This document shows, piece by piece, positions 1-41,935 of a DNA stretch of 41,935 bases (its first letter is position 1; every line of letters begins with the position of its first letter). The position numbers were made by a program. This DNA is from Candidatus Omnitrophota bacterium (GTDB lineage: Bacteria; Omnitrophota; Omnitrophia; Omnitrophales; Aquincolibacteriaceae). The stretch is from the NCBI GenBank assembly GCA_043803685.1, contig JAZDJU010000075.1, positions 1 to 41,935 of the forward strand. Reading direction: 5' to 3'.

Positions 1-3000
1 GTCGATCACAAGGTCCGGCTGACCTTCGACGATACTCGCCATCGTCTCCTCGTCCGCGAACGCGTTCACCACCTCGACTTTGCAATCGGGGTTGATCTGG
101 GCGATGCGTTCCCTGGCGGCTTCGGCCTTGAGTTTTCCGAGGTTAGGCGTGATCGCGAGAAGGTGACGGTTAAAATTGGTGGGTTTGATCGTATCAAAAT
201 CCACGAGCCGGAGATGACGAATGCCGGAACGCGCGAGGGCCTCGGTCGCGTAACCTCCCACGGCGCCGATCCCGATCACCACGACAAAAGCCTTTTCGAG
301 CCGCTCAACCTTTTCTTTACCGAGCAGGAGCTCCAGACAAAAAAGCCGTTCCATTCGCCCACACCGCTTTCTCTAAGGTTCCTTCTTCGATCCCCTTCGC
401 GCGTCCCGCGAGGTTATAAACTCCCTGGAGACTTTCAAAATATTTCTCGTCATGCGCGTCGGGACCGACCTGTCCCAGTTCCGTATAAGGAAAATCAGTT
501 TCAAGAAGCAGACGGTCCTGGGGCACGCTCCGCATGAGCGCGATCGACTCCTCAGTATCCCGTTGAAGGCTTTTCCACGAAAAGGAAATATAGGCTCCGA
601 GGGTTAAAAGATCCCGCAACACCTGCTGGGAACCCTGAAAGGAATGGACCATAAAACGCGTCTTGGGCGGAAGGCTTCTTTTCAACATACTTGAAAGATC
701 GCTCCACGCCCGGACACAATGGATGGCAAGAGGCCGTCCCAAACGCCCCGCGATCTCCAACTGCCGGTGGAAAACCTCGGTCTGCCTCGCGAAATCGATA
801 TTCCGCGCTTTGTCGAGTCCCACCTCGCCCACGCCCGCGTCCGGACTTCTCTTGAGAAAACCTTCCAAGGTCTTGTACCAATCCGCGGGAAGCTTGTCCG
901 TGTACCAGGGATGGATCCCGAAGAACGGAATAACCCGGCGGTCCTGCCGCGAAAGGTCCTCCACGGCCTGCCAATCCTCCGGACGGGTGCCGTTCAACAC
1001 GAATCGCCCGGCCTTGAAATCCTGCGCCAGTTTCAGGATGCTCGCGCGAATCGGAAGCTCTTTGATATCTTGAAAATGAAGATGCATATCACTTAACATG
1101 AGAGGATTGTATCCTGCTTACACGACCGCGTCCACTTTCGAAACAAGTCGCCCGAAATTCGATTCAAAAACAACCGAAAAAGAGCCGATACTTTCAGGGT
1201 GAAAGAACCTCAAACCACGCCATGCCATTCGAAAGAGGTATTATGAAACCGATAAGATCCAGTCTTCTCACCCTTTTCTGCGCACTGAGCCTTGTGCTCA
1301 CTCCCCGCTTATTGTTGGCAAGCACCAACGCGCAACCCTGGGGCGAACAGGAAGCCGAAAGGGATGCCCAGGAAGAAGTAACCTCTGAAGAGAAATCCGC
1401 ACAGGAGGAAATGAGCTCCAGCGTCTATGGACAGATCACGAACATCAGTCAGGATATGAGAACACTCTCTCTCCTTCCGACGGACCAGGTTGAAAACAAG
1501 GAGGAAGAGGACGACGACCAAGTCACCTCGCAGGACTATTATTTCAGATCCGAGACGCCGATCACAGGCATGGGGTCACTCAGTGAGCTTTCGGCGGGAG
1601 ATTATGTGAACCTTGAATACTACACGTTCCGGGACCAGAACAGGATCACCGAGATCAGTTTTGATAAGCACGGCGAGACCCAGAGGAGTAACACGGAAGG
1701 TAGCGGAACTTCAACCGGGGTTCTTGTAGGCTAAGCAGGAACAGCAACAAAAAGATTGTCTAGCACCGTTGCAGGATTAAATTGACGGGTTAACGGTACA
1801 GGCAGAAAGCAGATTGAAATTGAACAACCCGCAATTTCAATCTTGGAGCTACGCTAGAACCAACCCTTTTTCTTCGTGGTCGCCTTCGTGGTCGTCGCCT
1901 TCACCGCAACGTTCTTCTGAGCCACCACAGGCGCCCCGCCAAGGACGGGAACTACCTCTTTGGGGGTGGTTTCTTGCAGAGGATTGATCTGGGTTTCTTC
2001 AGGTTTCTCTTCAGTCGTCTTGGGAATATCCTTACGCTCTGAGCTCGTAAAATAATACTCCTCAGACCCCTTCTCCAATTGGCGGCTAATGATCCCGGTC
2101 ATGACCTTGTCTTTCCACTCACCGCGCCAGAAACAGACTTCCCCTTTTTTGGAGGTCTGCATGGTTTCCCAAATGGTGGGCCCCTGCTCCTGAACGGTCA
2201 GAGTATAATTGGTCGAGTTATAACCTATTTTATCCGCCCGCTCGGAACGGAATTTGTCATTCTGGAAAAGCAGCGTATCCTCCCCGACAAGATCGCCTTT
2301 TTTGGACTGGGACTCGATCTTAACGGTCCACGAAGATCCATTCAGCTCGGCTTTTTTTTCCAGGATCAGCTTCCGGAACGCCGCGCGCGCGGCTTCGTCT
2401 TTCTTGGAATTCCCCTTTTGAGGAGCGAGTACTGCCAAAGGGTTCGATTCGGCAGAACACTTTTCCGCAACGCCGAACGTCAATGCTGCCGTGATAAGAA
2501 AACTAAAAATAGCGAGAGATAAGGGCTTTCTCATTTTTGGGATCCTCCGTTAGGCGGACAGGCTAACATGCACGCATTATGTTTTCAATAGATTTGTAGT
2601 AAAGACGTCACGTTCGACCAAATAGCTCTTCACTTCATCGGCATGAGGATCATCAGGCGTCAGCCCCAGGTAGATCCGAAAATGCGATTCCGCTTTTTTT
2701 CGGTCCTGGCGCTGTTCCGCGTAGATATACCCGAGATTGTAATGGGCCTTCGCGTCGTTGGGATTGATCTCAACCGCTTTTTTAAACTCCTCAAGCGCGC
2801 GGTCATAATTCATTTCTCCCGCATAGAAGACGCCCAGATTGAAATGCATATCCCCCGTCTCCTTGACAAGGATCTGATTCTGACGGGCCATCTCCGAGAA
2901 CTTCGTCGGGAGATCCTCCAGCTTTTTTTCGAGAAATTTCCTTTCCTTCTGAAGAACATCGAAAGACTGGCTGAGACTCATAAAACTTTCCTGATAGCCT

Positions 3001-39000: not shown

Positions 39001-41935
39001 TCACCGTCCCGTTGACAGGCGACGTCACGCTTGCCGCCGCGATCACCTTGAACAGGGGACTCACGGACGCCGTCCTCAACCCGGTGTCCGGATCCTGGAC
39101 CTCCAACCGGATCCGGTAACGAGCGCCCACCAGCGTCACCGCAGGATCCACGCTCAGATCCCAATTCAAAGTGGAAGACCCGCTCGCACCGTTCCCCGTC
39201 TGGTCCTTCGAGCCGATCAACGTCCAGCTATCCGAAGCGTCATCAGGATCGTAATACACGTTCACCGTACGGTTCGATCCCCAAAAATTCCACGAGATCG
39301 TGTTCGTCGCAGAACTCGCCACGAGCTTCTGGTTCAACACAGGGGCCGTGAGCACCACATTCCCGGCGATCTTGAACTGAGGAGATTCCCCCTGCGATGC
39401 GTTAAAATCCATATCGATCACCTTGACCGTCACGGTATTCCCGATCACATCCGGAACATTGGTCCATGTCACCCCAGTCGCGCCGTTACCCGCAGGAACA
39501 TCCGTCGCGATCAATCCATCCCCGGGATAATAGCGGACTTCGACTTTACGGTTCGTGGTGCTCCCCGAATAGGTCCACTTGATCAGGTTCGGATAGGTCT
39601 GACCTACCAAAAGACTTGTGCTCGCGTCCGGCGTCGGCGTCACCACAACCTTCGGGCGAACTGTGAATTGGGCAGGAGCCCCAAGAAGGTCGGTATTAAT
39701 CGAGGTGTAATCATTATAAGAGATCTTGATACGGACCGTACTGTTGCGAAGGTCGGCCATCGGGGTCCACAAAAGGCTATGCCCGCCCTGTCCGCAAGCT
39801 GCCGCATCACCACCGGGCACCGTAAAATAATCCGCTCCATTCGTCGAGTACTCAACAATGCAGGTCGGAACAACATTACCGGACTTCGTACCGCTCTTCG
39901 AAACCCATTCGATCGTCTGACCGGTATCCGTATCGGTTGCGTACCAAAGAGTTGAAACCGTCGGATTGTCCAGGGAGGTAAAATTGGGACGGATCTTGAA
40001 TAGAGCGCTCAATGCCTCGAGCTGTGTGCCCGCAGGAGCGCTCAAATTGGTCATCCGGATCCTGCTTGTGTCGGAGATCTTGCGATTGGCGCCAATGATC
40101 CCTGCCACCCAGGCGTAATTGCTGACACCATTACTGCCTGAAAAATACGCGTTCTCGATCGTATAAACGTTCCCGCCCGAGTAATCCCCCGCCGTGAATG
40201 TCCCGGTCGTCGAGTATTCGATCTTGAGGTCCCCGATCGATCCCGTCTTGTCCCACTGGATCGAAGGCGTCGGCGTATTCCCAACCGTCCAGATATCCGT
40301 CACGATCGGTGACGGGATCGAAAGTTTACCGCGGATATAGCTGGCGACAGGAGAAACGCTGTTCGCGTTCGAGTTGTTATAATCTGAAACTCTGAAAAGA
40401 ACATTATTGGAAATGGTATCCAACACCGGATTCCAGGTCCACTTCTTCGCGCCGCCGCCTGCGTCATCACCATCCACACCACCCGCCGGGGTGATCTCAA
40501 CCCATGTCGGCCCCCCGGTCATCACATGGCTGTATTCAACTTTATATTTCAGAATAGCGCCCGTAGGCACCCACCCGATATCCGTCTGGTCTCCGACCCG
40601 AATGTTCGTCAGATCTCCGGAAGGCGTCACACTGTTAACGGAACCGCGGATCTGGAAGCCTCCGCCCGAGATCCCCTGGGCATTATTCGTTTTCTGAGGC
40701 GTTGGCGTCTCCGCTTTCACTTTGATCCTGGAGTTGAACCCGGCCGTTGAAAGAGGCGTGTTGGCCGGAATACTGTTCCAGGTCCAGGTGTATTCTGCAT
40801 TATCCGCGAGCGCCGACACATCGATCGGTCCCGCCGTATTGATCGGGGCGGCTTCATAGTTGGTCCCATCCGGCGCGTAATAGATATTCACGGTCTGGAG
40901 AGCGCCCTGCTTTGTAAATTTGATGTCATGAGCTTCCAGGAGTCCCCACGACTCGCTCCCGGAGCCTGTGGGCGCTGTCACATTGATCGCCGCACGGATA
41001 CAAAAAGTTTCAGTGCTGATCAAAGTCACGGCGCTGTTGTCAGGATTGACCTGTGTGATACGAAGCTTTACGTCCGCATTCAGATCATTCAAAGTTCCCG
41101 GCACGGTCGGCCAGATAAAACTTCCGTCGTTATCGGTTCCCGCGATAAGTTCATTCCATGTCGGAGGACCGCCCTGCGCGTTGTTCGTATACTCAACCTT
41201 CATCTGGGTCGTCGTGACCAACCCTTTCAGTTTCGTCCACTGGATCTCGGATGTCGTGGACCCGACCGGGATGAAAGGACCGTTAAAAACCGTAAGATTG
41301 CTGACGGACGCGCCGCGTTTGAATTCCGTACCTTCGGCGGCCACATAAAGCAGGCTGCTGGTCGCCGTGTTGTTATTGACCAGAATGCTCGCTGTATTCA
41401 GCACCGCGTCGGTATTGCTCGTTTCATCCGCCGGCCACGTATAAGAGCAGCTACCGCCCGAACAGGCGGTCGCGGCAGCGACGTTGTCGGCGATCTGCAC
41501 ATAGTCGTCTGGGAATGTTCCCGCCCCTGGCACAATGCTGTAATAAATATCAAAATTCACCATGGAACCTGTATAGGTCCATGCGATATCCATCGCCGTA
41601 TCCGCCGCCCTGTTCTCTCCGTTATCAGGTGCATCGAACGTGATGCCGCCGCGGATCGTAAATTTGGACGACATCGCATTCACAGCTTCGAATCCAAGCG
41701 CTGCGTCCTGCACCTTGATCTTCACAAGGTCGCTGATCGCGTTCGGGATCGTCCAGGTATAACCCGTCGTTCCAACACCTACCGCCACAGGCACCCCCCC
41801 CGTTGATCGGCGTTGGATCCCAATTGACGCCGTCCTGGGCGTAATAAATGTTCACCTCATCAACACCCGTCCCCTGCGTCTGCGTCCACTTGATCAGGTT
41901 ATTGTAAGTCGTCCCGACCGAGAACTGCTGGTCCA

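Follow-up and report, generated by a model that had tools for sequence, protein, structure and literature searches.

What does an F-type ATPase do when its genes lie between the gene of a giant surface protein and those of a secretion machine? We examined this arrangement in an uncultured Candidatus Omnitrophota bacterium, taking as the window the whole contig JAZDJU010000075.1 (41,935 nt; hereafter C75). An earlier note on this DNA had described the order giant, epsilon, c, a b-delta fusion, alpha, gamma, beta and then T2SS or type IV pilus genes. A Pfam search recovered this order on the minus strand, where beta is followed by a GspE/PilB-PilZ gene, GspF, pseudopilins and GspL/M-like genes, with the secretin placed farther along the same gene string. 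The features are listed below from the 5' end of the string.

41795..41935, minus strand: 5' continuation of the giant ORF in another frame, open to the contig end; its translation DQQFSVGTTYNNLIKWTQTQGTGVDEVNIYYAQDGVNWDPTPING resembles a repeat found inside the giant
26696..41794, minus strand: repeat part of the giant ORF, residues 1-5033
25034..26695, minus strand: non-repeat C-terminal region of the giant, about residues 5034-5587 (sequence, alignment, model helices)
24269..25033, minus strand: anchor module fused to the giant (alignment and AlphaFold2 model)
24006..24266, minus strand: epsilon subunit, 86 aa (PF02823, 51 bits)
23792..24019, minus strand: c subunit, 75 aa (PF00137, 27.6 bits)
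23039..23773, minus strand: b-delta fusion, 244 aa (OSCP match only at residues 167-233)
21520..23094, minus strand: alpha subunit (TIGR00962, 509.5 bits, cut-off 484)
20653..21501, minus strand: gamma subunit (PF00231, 125.7 bits)
19254..20684, minus strand: beta subunit (TIGR01039, 555 bits, cut-off 463)
16790..18973, minus strand: GspE/PilB-type assembly ATPase with MshEN and PilZ (Pfam and curated HMMs)
15458..16720, minus strand: GspF/PilC platform protein (Pfam and curated HMMs)
14652..15449, minus strand: Peptidase_MA_2 protein (Pfam)
10099..14682, minus strand: pseudopilin/GspK/PilM/N/GspM block as a whole (Pfam and curated HMMs), made up of the next six
14248-14682, minus strand: GspG major pseudopilin (139.8 bits, cut-off 88.85)
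13860-14591, minus strand: prepilin-type protein
13259-13858, minus strand: prepilin-type protein, GspJ-like
12196-13431, minus strand: GspK
10681-12192, minus strand: PilM/N (GspL-like)
10099-10659, minus strand: GspM-like protein
2577..6899, minus strand: secretin/ExeA/TPR block as a whole (profile search), made up of the next four
6036-6899, minus strand: ExeA/GspA-like AAA protein
5401-6174, minus strand: GspB/C-like protein
3570-5414, minus strand: secretin
2577-3548, minus strand: TPR protein

Counted from a GTG, the giant ORF (24266..41794, minus strand) has 5842 aa; from stop to stop it has 5861 aa. At a run of eight G (41794-41801) its frame shifts by one base. Upstream of this run the frame reaches the contig end without a stop and encodes a repeat that also makes up an internal part of the giant. 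The N-terminus of the giant is therefore missing, its real start lies beyond the GTG, and the 5840 aa previously given for the whole ORF is a lower bound only. At the other end, its TAA shares one base with the ATG of epsilon (aaaTAATGgct), which is the overlap reported earlier at 24266. A self-profile search resolved the repeat part into 47 tandem Ig-like units of ~105 aa each, and the sole Pfam match in the protein is to Kre9_KNH, itself Ig-like. The C-terminal region beyond the repeats is partly helical (helices 9-29 and 48-73 of a 330-aa model) and includes a conserved tail of ~85 aa, which is kept by giants whose module is a separate gene. The adhesion or lectin-type domains of giants vary by locus (Ig-like repeats, FG-GAP, Laminin_G_3, DUF2341, Kelch, Lysostaphin_N), and those with their start present carry N-terminal signal-like segments of the Sec type.

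The anchor module was modelled by AlphaFold2 (pLDDT 76) as a beta-sandwich, an antiparallel three-helix bundle, a transmembrane (TM) helix (~24350-24448) and a short cytoplasmic tail. Its alignment agrees with the earlier description of a conserved NPS...DxW module with a TM anchor, which is part of the giant in some loci and a protein of its own in others, and shows N98, P99, D162 and W164 (330-aa alignment numbering) to be invariant. No Pfam family matched the module, and structure comparison of the model found no specific PDB fold; with 1076 representative clusters in its family, it is an uncatalogued domain type and a new point of this analysis. Its conserved TM motif also occurs in modules of loci that lack the ATPase, and is therefore no marker of ATPase contact.

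The ATPase itself appears catalytically intact by its residues, and would hydrolyse ATP: alpha retains the Walker A motif and Arg finger, beta the Walker A motif and the catalytic Glu (GERxRE), and across the loci the Arg-finger motif is present in 62 of 63 alpha sequences and GERxRE in all 61 beta sequences. Curated HMM scores place both subunits within ordinary atpA/atpD. The C75 epsilon consists of the beta-sandwich domain only. In the b-delta protein, the N-terminal domain of delta is absent; the model (pLDDT 84) runs from an N-terminal TM segment through one long helix to the delta C-terminal domain, and its Foldseek matches are delta C-terminal domains, mycobacterial b-delta and V-ATPase subunit E. 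By this model, the protein is a peripheral stalk.

No relative of the a subunit was found in the 63 loci searched (best E 0.4), in line with the earlier claim that these non-respiratory sets lack it. The genome holds three alpha/beta sets, four c matches and one ATP-synt_A match, the last in the respiratory operon on contig C37. A lone ATP-synt_B gene had been claimed as well: only one match exceeds the cut-off, but a further, sub-threshold one lies inside the b-delta protein of contig C130. Alignment of the c subunits confirmed that C75 has Ala at the position of the ion-binding Glu of the respiratory c, whereas both c subunits on C130 retain the Glu. The statement that these ATPases cannot be ion-driven consequently stands for C75 on two grounds, the missing a subunit and the Ala in c, while at C130 it rests on the missing a subunit alone. 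Among 64 c ORFs, the carboxylate is lost in 22 and the Glu retained in 42; the cytoplasmic loop GRNPSxAPK is almost invariant.

Secretion and pilus genes are indeed present, as had been noted, but taken together they resemble a T2SS more closely than a type IV pilus. This reading comes from a GspG above its curated cut-off, together with GspJ-, GspK-, GspM- and ExeA-like genes and a secretin; GspA/B/C-like genes and the secretin sit in the same gene string. The N-terminal MshEN and C-terminal PilZ of the C75 GspE/PilB protein are both c-di-GMP-binding types.

A giant also lies directly upstream of, and co-directional with, the second non-respiratory ATPase locus of the genome, as previously stated. 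On C130, which is colinear with C75, a giant of 3017 aa (17143-26196) is followed by a 645-aa protein and by epsilon, c, b-delta, c, alpha, gamma, beta and PilB. The 645-aa protein contains two modules and a GGDEF domain, and so is the duplicated module in a separate GGDEF protein that the earlier note had described. In a third locus, on contig C105, a large 5'-open ORF is followed by a module protein, REC-PilB, PilC, pseudopilins, PilM/N and a GspM-like gene. No ATPase genes were found in this locus; the ATPase is thus an add-on, whose true partner may be the T2SS instead of the giant.

The synteny, sampled until then within the genus, extends through the phylum. We fetched 60 loci; 53 of them, from 24 families, could be judged upstream. 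The module directly precedes the ATPase genes in 51 of the 53, often overlapping or with a near-zero gap. A co-directional giant likewise lies upstream in 51 of the 53; the ORF there reaches 1000 aa or more in 43, and a contig end truncates it in eight others. Neither giant nor module is present in the two remaining loci. Downstream, a GspE/PilB-like ORF follows beta in all 51 judgeable loci, and the ATPase genes always lie between the module and GspE, never at the far T2SS end. ORFs of at least 1000 aa number 59 in the genome, or ~2% of its genes (a rough estimate of ~2700); a giant adjoins the ATPase genes at both loci here and at 43-51 of 53 loci across the phylum, far more often than this rate would give by chance. 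In family f1, a hand count found the module in 37 of 39 genomes with at least two alpha matches, in 4 of 23 with one and in none of the 3 without. Giants do head the ATPase/pilus operons, but they also occur elsewhere: in 14 of 20 extra loci, giant and module stand without ATPase or T2SS nearby, and both occur in at least one 94%-complete genome, G070, with a sole alpha match that looks respiratory. The dependence is therefore one-way; the giant is not specific to ATPase operons and works without the motor, at least in cis.

We give a probability of roughly 0.45 to the reading of the locus as one surface apparatus, in which a giant adhesin, a channel-less F-type ATPase, a T2SS-like machine and c-di-GMP control would be combined. 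The giant, with its variable repeat region, would be exported by a Sec-type signal, such as is seen where the N-terminus is available, and held in the inner membrane by the C-terminal module, with the beta-sandwich and three-helix bundle outside, one TM helix and the tail inside. The ATPase would hydrolyse ATP, and its gamma-epsilon-c-ring would be turned or loaded against the membrane-anchored b-delta stalk with no ion movement. Judged from its genes, such a motor without an ion channel probably burns ATP for surface work, not ATP synthesis. The T2SS-like pseudopilus machine and secretin might bring or hold the giant across the outer membrane, while c-di-GMP could exert control via MshEN and PilZ on GspE and, in the 5 loci that have GGDEF on the module or in a neighbouring gene, via that domain. 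Mechanical work would pass in the membrane from the ATPase to the anchored giant, the pseudopilus platform or both; the bacterium may use it to attach to host or prey cells, to pull on them or to move over them. Gene order suggests that giant, ATPase and secretion machine cooperate physically; we also infer co-transcription, surface display and contact between anchor and ATPase. Against the apparatus, an inner-membrane-anchored giant of more than 5800 aa would have to pass the secretin, and 42 of 64 c subunits keep their Glu. The C105 locus, the giants and modules with no ATPase or T2SS nearby, and the sharing of the module's TM motif with ATPase-free loci also count against it.

Possible, though in our view rather unlikely, is that the ATPase serves the T2SS/pilus machine only, for instance to drive or regulate the assembly of the pseudopilus, and that the giant is a cargo of this machine, encoded upstream for co-regulation with no direct mechanical link to the ATPase. 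The constant GspE/PilB gene after beta (51 of 51) fits this, as do the ATPase-free C105 locus with its giant, module and T2SS, the solitary giants and modules of the 14 extra loci, and the published accounts, which associate the ATPase with pilus genes (PMC10066038) and describe giants by T2SS-like loci for Omnitrophota generally (10.1101/2023.11.21.568195; 10.64898/2026.06.07.730766). However, a pseudopilus already has GspE as its power source, the ATPase genes keep their place between module and GspE, the module comes immediately ahead of the ATPase genes in 51 of 53 loci, and both giant-free loci are also module-free.

In the FliI-FliH-FliJ complex of type III export, substrates are passed to an export gate by an F1-like hexamer that has a b-delta-like stalk. 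It seems improbable that the complex here is a counterpart of it, an ATPase devoted to exporting or unfolding the giant. The b-delta fusion stalk without an ion channel, and the position beside a secretion machine and a secreted substrate of great length, would suit such a role, and FliI/SctN models match alpha and beta at 150-190 bits; these scores, however, are far under those of atpA/atpD and under the models' own cut-offs. The type III ATPase is a homohexamer and has no c-ring, whereas here alpha and beta are distinct subunits and gamma, epsilon and a c-ring are retained; giants with complete starts have Sec-type N-termini, and profile searches found no export-gate homologue in the C75 locus. 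We regard as very improbable an ATPase or synthase that is still ion-coupled, at least where c keeps Glu, by borrowing the respiratory a subunit of C37 or an undetected a-like protein. Retention of Glu in 42 of 64 c ORFs, including both on C130, passage of the curated atpA/atpD cut-offs and a genome that is 91% complete, so that genes may be missing, speak for it. The single a subunit in the genome and the lack of any relative in 63 loci speak against it, as do the Ala of C75, the 22 c ORFs without any carboxylate, and a gene order and fixed place in a secretion operon unlike those of energy-conserving operons.

That ATPase and pilus genes are linked had already been reported in 2023: Seymour et al. 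(Nat Microbiol, PMC10066038) described 'symbiotic' (type 2/3-like) F-type ATPase/type-4a pilus loci in Omnitrophota, with ATPase and PilB/PilC-type genes within 10 kb on 57 of 66 contigs. Those loci share with C75 the phylum, a second, non-respiratory alpha and the adjoining PilB/PilC-type genes. In the parts of that paper covered here, giant ORFs (>20 kb) are treated as a separate trait, whereas in C75 the giant heads the ATPase string, and the anchor module, missing a subunit, variable c carboxylate and b-delta architecture are not mentioned. The earlier note had allowed that its supplements might show the giant-ATPase adjacency; Table S8 lists only ATPase and pilus genes, and the literature searched, the paper's large supplementary figures excepted, yielded no published link to the giant. 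Omnitrophota giants flanked by T2SS-like loci were reported by West-Roberts et al. (2023 preprint, 10.1101/2023.11.21.568195) and in a 2026 preprint (10.64898/2026.06.07.730766). As in C75, GspD/E/F-type and PilZ genes adjoin giant surface proteins, for which a role in prey adhesion was proposed; those giants are at least 25 kb and are described as preceded by the secretion locus, whereas in C75 the giant comes first and the secretion genes after. The giant-context passages of both preprints contain no F-type ATPase; the term 'ATP synthase' is absent from the main text of 2023 (0 occurrences), and the 2026 text has it in metabolic panels only.

The principle of the proposed apparatus would be that suggested for the gliding motor of Mycoplasma mobile, a type 2 F1-like (G1) ATPase working with giant legs, Gli349/Gli521 (Toyonaga et al. 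2025, PMC11864180). In the portions of that account used here, an F1-derived ATPase is recruited away from ion coupling, a stalk protein has its presumed origin in a b-delta fusion, which the C75 stalk also is, very large surface proteins are the proposed mechanical load, and the organism lives attached to host cells. This comparison is an analogy and not demonstrated kinship, since C75 alpha and beta score as ordinary atpA/atpD and do not reach the thresholds of the Mycoplasma gliding families or of the type 3 families (glide_MMOB1660 394.6 against 600; glide_MMOB1670 419.5 against 850). C75 also retains recognisable c and epsilon subunits and a TM-anchored stalk, whereas GliD of M. mobile has no TM segment (PMC11864180). 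Unlike M. mobile, the organism is a diderm with a secretin, and its giant shares a gene string with the ATPase genes. N-ATPase (alternate F1Fo) operons resemble C75 in being a second F-type gene set of unusual gene order, and the C75 b-delta aligns full length with their long b (alt_F1F0_F0_B positions 11-238 of 246), but C75 misses all four N-ATPase cut-offs (alpha 466.7 < 750.5, beta 501.9 < 752, gamma 27.8 < 282, b 34.4 < 224.7). N-ATPases are known to have both an a subunit and a c subunit that binds ions; C75, unlike them, is without a.

The Peptidase_MA_2 gene is conserved in such clusters, on C75 and C130 alike, and precedes epsilon in some loci. Close relatives of the anchor module come from Candidatus Omnitrophota.

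The giant open reading frame (ORF) of the window, the 41,935-base contig C75 of a 2.89-Mb, 91% complete genome, heads a compact string of minus-strand genes. The earlier note had the stop codon of the giant overlapping the epsilon start, and this is indeed the arrangement: its TAA and the ATG of epsilon (86-aa product) have one base in common. Epsilon is followed by c (75 aa), a b-delta fusion (244 aa), alpha, gamma and beta, then by a GspE/PilB ATPase with MshEN and PilZ domains, GspF/PilC, a Peptidase_MA_2 protein, GspG, two prepilin-type proteins, GspK, a PilM/N fusion and a GspM-like protein. 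Intergenic gaps in the string range from -56 to +69 nt, the exception being 280 nt between beta and GspE. Farther on, the same strand encodes an ExeA/GspA-like AAA protein, a GspB/C-like protein, a secretin and a TPR protein. A promoter scan of positions 9800-25000 returned 9 promoter-like sites against 10.3 in shuffles, which is no excess; one such site falls inside the beta-GspE gap, and the scan found no terminator-like site at the giant/epsilon junction. The features discussed here are the following:

41794-41801: run of eight G immediately 5' of the GTG of the giant
24266-41794, minus strand: giant, 5842 aa counted from the GTG
14652-15449, minus strand: Peptidase_MA_2 protein
7481-8938 and 9325-9999, plus strand: PAS histidine kinase and TPR protein
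6886-7140, minus strand: MerR-type regulator
6036-6899, minus strand: ExeA/GspA-like AAA_22 protein

GspG of the window scored 139.8 bits with TIGR01710 (cut-off 88.85), identifying it as the major pseudopilin of a T2SS. The GspE (591.7 against a cut-off of 630.25), GspF (363.2 against 424), GspK (93.6 against 130) and GspM (34 against 60) models were best or near-best matches below their cut-offs, and the secretin stayed below those of both GspD (228.4 against 351) and PilQ (242.8 against 284). Neither a prepilin peptidase nor PilT was seen among the window's genes. Since GspG passes its cut-off and GspE, F, D, K and M are best or near-best but sub-threshold, we name the pseudopilin/secretin machine T2SS-like, which it probably is, rather than a type IV pilus.

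The T2SS genes are parted into two blocks by the histidine kinase and TPR genes on the opposite strand and the MerR-type regulator. The best model for the ExeA/GspA-like protein is TIGR03015, an XrtA/PEP-CTERM system-associated ATPase (186 bits against a cut-off of 324.5). The Peptidase_MA_2 protein is conserved in clusters of this kind (C130:5371-6252 on another contig of the genome, and fetched loci L043, L046, L051, L070, L074, L075 and L081); its gene lies 3' of GspF in the window and between module and epsilon in other loci, and the product may process the giant or the pseudopilins. In many fetched loci, for example L008, L010, L014 and L045, a stand-alone protein of ~150 aa is encoded between beta and GspE and matches only the N-terminal MshEN region (c-di-GMP-binding type) of GspE.

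The giant had been given as a protein of 5840 aa. The ORF itself stands, and the figure does not hold as a full length, as an open frame continues to the contig end. Beyond the G run, the neighbouring frame is open over the 135 bases to the contig end, and its translation, DQQFSVGTTYNNLIKWTQTQGTGVDEVNIYYAQDGVNWDPTPING, nearly duplicates one of the giant's internal repeats. The GTG at 41794 is a false start. Because the upstream frame is open and nearly copies the giant's own repeat, the gene is cut by the contig end within its repeats, so that 5842 aa is a lower bound. The one-base frameshift at the G run could be an assembly or sequencing error or a genuine slippery run. Residues 1-5033 form 47 tandem Ig-like units of ~105 aa each, followed by a C-terminal region of 800 aa; Kre9_KNH (Ig-like) is the only Pfam match above cut-off. 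A congeneric relative (alpha 86% identical) has 6958 aa in the open frame that ends in the module, and in other genomes such frames reach 11,907 and 12,861 aa. A further contig of the genome carries a 2559-aa open frame (C106:37495-45171, plus strand) that exits the contig end and whose Ig-like repeats show ~48% similarity to those with which the C75 giant begins. This frame could represent a missing N-terminal portion, either of this giant or of another; no sequence overlap between the two was found, and therefore no join is claimed.

The last ~245 residues of the giant are conserved, with a mean column identity of 52% across 29 sequences, and N98, P99, D162 and W164 (numbering of a 330-aa alignment) are among the invariant residues. 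The AlphaFold2 model of this anchor module (pLDDT 76) comprises a seven-strand beta-sandwich, an antiparallel three-helix bundle, a TM helix and a disordered tail. We defined the module by a beta-sandwich with NPS...DxW, a three-helix bundle with HIGxYR and a TM helix with TW...FLG...FF..W, located at the extreme C-terminus of a giant or in a separate signal-peptide protein directly after one; the window's giant belongs to the family as defined in this analysis. Pfam contains no family matching the module, and a Foldseek search of the model against the PDB gave no match at E ≤0.001. VIA-align wide returned generic three-helix-bundle matches (best Z 10.3, in the common range for helical models) and weak mu-homology-type matches of the beta-sandwich; the PDB matches being generic or weak, no fold family was assigned. 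A search of the ESM Atlas gave unnamed Omnitrophota clusters only, and a locus search with a single 250-aa module returned three close loci, all from Omnitrophota. A profile search of 1.84 billion representative proteins gave 1076 matches at E ≤0.001. The module thus appears, from its sequence, to be an uncatalogued family. It occurs as the C-terminal end of long proteins, as stand-alone proteins of 245-310 aa, and in proteins of ~330-690 aa with two or three matched stretches. When encoded separately it starts with a signal peptide; sandwich and bundle would accordingly lie on the outer side of the inner membrane and the tail on its inner side. In 10 loci with a separate module, the giant ends in a conserved ~80-aa tail that precedes the module when the two are fused.

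The ATPase subunits of the window are recognizable throughout. Alpha passed the NCBIfam atpA model (509.5 against 484.45) and beta the atpD model (555.3 against 462.85), and by Pfam and NCBIfam the set contains the catalytic alpha3beta3, gamma and epsilon subunits of an F1Fo ATP synthase, with alpha 41% identical to the respiratory alpha on contig C37. Across the window, the second locus on contig C130 and 60 fetched loci, the Arg-finger motif of alpha is found in 62 of 63 sequences and the GERxRE motif of beta in all 61; Walker A motifs are kept in all variants listed. Epsilon consists of the beta-sandwich domain only. The b-delta model (pLDDT 84) has a single helix over residues 2-135, starting with a hydrophobic segment, then a second helix and an alpha/beta domain that superposes on the C-terminal domains of F-type delta subunits (e.g., 9vkp_d, 1.4 Å over 66 columns); the full-length model is similar to subunit E of the V-ATPase stalk (TM-score at most 0.57), and the OSCP sequence match covers its C-terminal half only.

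On the ion-coupling side, both earlier statements, that the set has no a subunit and that the c subunit has lost its carboxylate, were borne out. PF00119 has no match in the window, and its one match in the genome lies on C37, in a canonical respiratory operon (I-a-c-b-delta-alpha-gamma-beta-epsilon). A phmmer --max search with filters off found no relatives of the a subunit in 63 loci (best E 0.4). In helix 2 of the window's c subunit, Ala stands where the carboxylate residue would be. Among 64 c ORFs this position is occupied by Glu in 42, and by another residue in 22 (9 Gln, 5 Ala, 3 Thr, 2 Ser and one each of Gly, Phe and Val). The cytoplasmic loop GRNPSxAPK is almost invariant across the same ORFs. 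A near-invariant loop beside a variable carboxylate position suggests that selection acts on the contact of rotor and F1, not on ion binding. In one locus (L029, G209:C1) epsilon and c are separated by an inserted 521-aa ORF for which six TM segments are predicted, and in another (L049, G220:C14) two alpha paralogues of 481 and 491 aa adjoin within one ATPase set.

The same arrangement recurs on contig C130, which is colinear with C75, in agreement with the earlier note: a 3017-aa giant with an N-terminal hydrophobic segment is followed by a 645-aa protein with two modules, a TM helix and GGDEF, by epsilon, c, b-delta, c, alpha, gamma and beta, and then by PilB, PilC, Peptidase_MA_2, pseudopilins and PilM/N. 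On contig C105, a third locus starts with an ORF (>662 aa) that is open at its 5' end, continues with a 325-aa module protein and then encodes REC-PilB, PilC, pseudopilins, PilM/N and a GspM-like product; it contains no ATPase genes.

We further assessed how far the order holds in the phylum. The window alpha matches 307 of 401 Omnitrophota genomes, and from 150 listed matches (46-88% identity) 60 loci in 59 genomes were drawn; the sample is non-random, as matches were passed over mostly for short upstream sequence or redundancy. Seven loci with less than 400 nt upstream were set aside, leaving 53 judgeable loci from 24 families. The position of the giant directly upstream of the ATPase set, previously sampled within the genus, extends well beyond it: the module stands immediately before the first ATPase gene in 51 of 53 loci, as a fusion with a long ORF in 28 cases and as a gene of its own in 23. 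A co-directional upstream ORF of at least 1000 aa is present in 43 of the 53, most of them cut by the end of the fetched stretch or contig (complete giants measure 1324 to 4018 aa), and in eight the upstream ORF is shorter and cut by the contig end. The remaining two loci, L051 and L055, lack giant and module alike, with a REC-GGDEF gene in their place; their apparent module matches were rejected as REC-GGDEF proteins hitting the GGDEF part of the C130 query. All 51 loci with at least 1.5 kb downstream have a GspE/PilB-like ORF after beta, often with a stand-alone MshEN-domain protein just before it, and GGDEF occurs on or beside the module in five loci. Alpha precedes epsilon in six loci, with the order module, alpha, epsilon, c, second c or c-like gene, b-delta, gamma, beta; the second, more divergent c-like gene is found in L048, L053, L054, L057 and L060 and is missing in L059. 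Upstream of the ATPase genes many contigs come to an end after only a few kb, which is what breakage of assemblies at giant repeats would produce. The giant-module-ATPase arrangement is real and strongly conserved.

The outer part of the giants is variable. Eleven upstream giants differ in their Pfam domain sets, one of them having no match; the sets include Kre9_KNH and Reelin-B-type Ig repeats, FG-GAP with Laminin_G_3, DUF2341 with Laminin_G_3 and Kelch, and Lysostaphin_N repeats. A conserved base with a variable outer part would fit a fixed machine with an exchangeable adhesin.

The module profile matches 195 of 401 genomes. In one family of the phylum sample (f1), the module is present in 37 of 39 genomes with at least two alpha matches (a proxy for a non-respiratory alpha), in 4 of the 23 that have a single match and in none of the 3 that lack one, a tally made by hand over related, non-independent genomes. 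Twenty extra module loci were chosen by eye as not coinciding with listed alpha matches; six of them do have ATPase genes, and 14 contain neither ATPase genes nor a match to the T2SS query proteins. An ORF of at least 1000 aa is fused or just upstream in 17 of the 20 (in two of these with a short ORF call between), two loci are cut or ambiguous, and one lacks such an ORF. Downstream of seven of the 14 ATPase-free loci lie unrelated genes (GlmS-like, rubrerythrin, pyrimidine synthesis, polysaccharide export, recombinases). Since giant and module are found without ATPase or T2SS, giant plus anchor is a unit in its own right; the ATPase-T2SS set is nearly always accompanied by it, and the reverse is not so. 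The modules of ATPase-free loci have a different conserved tail and a similar TM motif, and the motif was accordingly rejected as a mark of ATPase contact. In several genomes, ATPase-free units of the type of L065, L067, L069, L077 and L078 lie repeatedly among rubrerythrin, GlmS-like, TP_methylase and pyrimidine-synthesis genes, and their module tails share KKS[DE]I.DIE.RLK.

We consider it probable (about 0.8) that giant, ATPase and T2SS-like machine constitute one functional unit. What follows on function and mechanism is proposed from gene content and order. A rotary unit without an ion path would hydrolyse ATP and could act mechanically on the membrane-anchored giant, the pseudopilus platform or both, which may serve attachment to, or movement on, other cells. 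Parts of c-di-GMP type recur in the set (MshEN and PilZ on GspE, GGDEF by the module in some loci). A direct mechanical link between motor and anchor seems rather doubtful to us; a complex prediction of b-delta against module residues 160-330 scored 0.00 and is uninformative either way. Unlikely, too, is the complete scheme, in which the a-less motor would be coupled in the inner membrane via c-ring and b-delta to the TM anchor of the giant, the giant would reach the cell surface through a T2SS secretin, ATP hydrolysis would twist, pull or reset the fibre, and the module would replace subunit a in a new surface organelle for attachment, gliding or predation, independent of Mycoplasma. If the motor-anchor coupling is true, it would be a new kind of ATP-driven surface organelle in a diderm bacterium.

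The main rival has the ATPase serving the T2SS only, with the giant as T2SS cargo. The GspE/PilB-like ORF that follows beta in all judgeable loci agrees with it, as do West-Roberts 2023 (10.1101/2023.11.21.568195) and a 2026 preprint (10.64898/2026.06.07.730766), which in the parts considered here tie giants to T2SS-like loci and leave F-type ATPases unmentioned in that context; the giant-module units that stand without ATPase or T2SS genes also count in its favour. An export ATPase in the manner of type III systems would likewise sit beside a secretion machine, whereas beta (≤190 bits) and alpha (≤162) remain far below the FliI/SctN cut-offs of ~380-620. Residual ion coupling, with an a subunit supplied in trans, could draw on the a gene of C37 and on the c ORFs that retain Glu; the Ala of the window's own c subunit tells against it. 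N-ATPase models also stayed below cut-off (alt_F1F0 alpha 466.7 against 750.5, beta 501.9 against 752, gamma 27.8 against 282.35, b 34.4 against 224.7). The closest working analogy is the G1-ATPase of Mycoplasma mobile with Gli349/Gli521, as far as described in the cited parts of PMC11864180. The cut-offs of the curated models for type 2 gliding (glide_MMOB1660, 394.6 against 600; glide_MMOB1670, 419.5 against 850) and type 3 (MSC_0618/0619; alpha 285.6 against 520, beta 384.8 against 570; all NCBIfam) were not reached. In a PDB sequence search with alpha, the best matches were ordinary bacterial F1 alpha subunits, and no Mycoplasma chain was among the best 60.

By alpha paralogy and neighbourhood, the locus is assigned to the Omnitrophota ATPase/pilus loci described in the consulted parts of Seymour 2023 (PMC10066038), having a non-respiratory alpha within 10 kb of PilB, whose gene starts 280 nt after beta. 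In that source, Table S8 covers ATPase and pilus genes only and Table S9 the giants. A full-text literature search, with the large supplementary PDF of Seymour 2023 outside its scope, found no paper stating the giant-anchor-ATPase order. To the published loci, the present analysis adds a giant adhesin and an uncatalogued anchor module.

To our knowledge, only rarely has a rotary F-type ATPase been shown to work outside ion coupling; examples are Mycoplasma gliding and, possibly, the cleavage of antibodies, and the route by which force is transferred to surface proteins in these is, as far as we know, still unknown. Here a candidate load, a giant adhesin on a one-helix anchor, lies in the motor's own gene string in at least 24 families of the phylum, and the set retains a recognizable c-ring and a TM-anchored stalk. 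What an F-ATPase does in the absence of subunit a becomes a directly addressable question, with a small defined set of proteins for contact tests (anchor module, c, b-delta, epsilon and gamma). The module, with its 1076 representative clusters, offers a sequence handle for giants of this class in fragmented metagenomes; many fetched contigs end inside such a giant gene. ORFs of 1000 aa or longer number 59 in the genome under study, 16 of which reach 3000 aa or more; together they account for ~15% of the 2.89-Mb assembly, and the largest stop-to-stop frame, on contig C59, comprises 10,126 aa.
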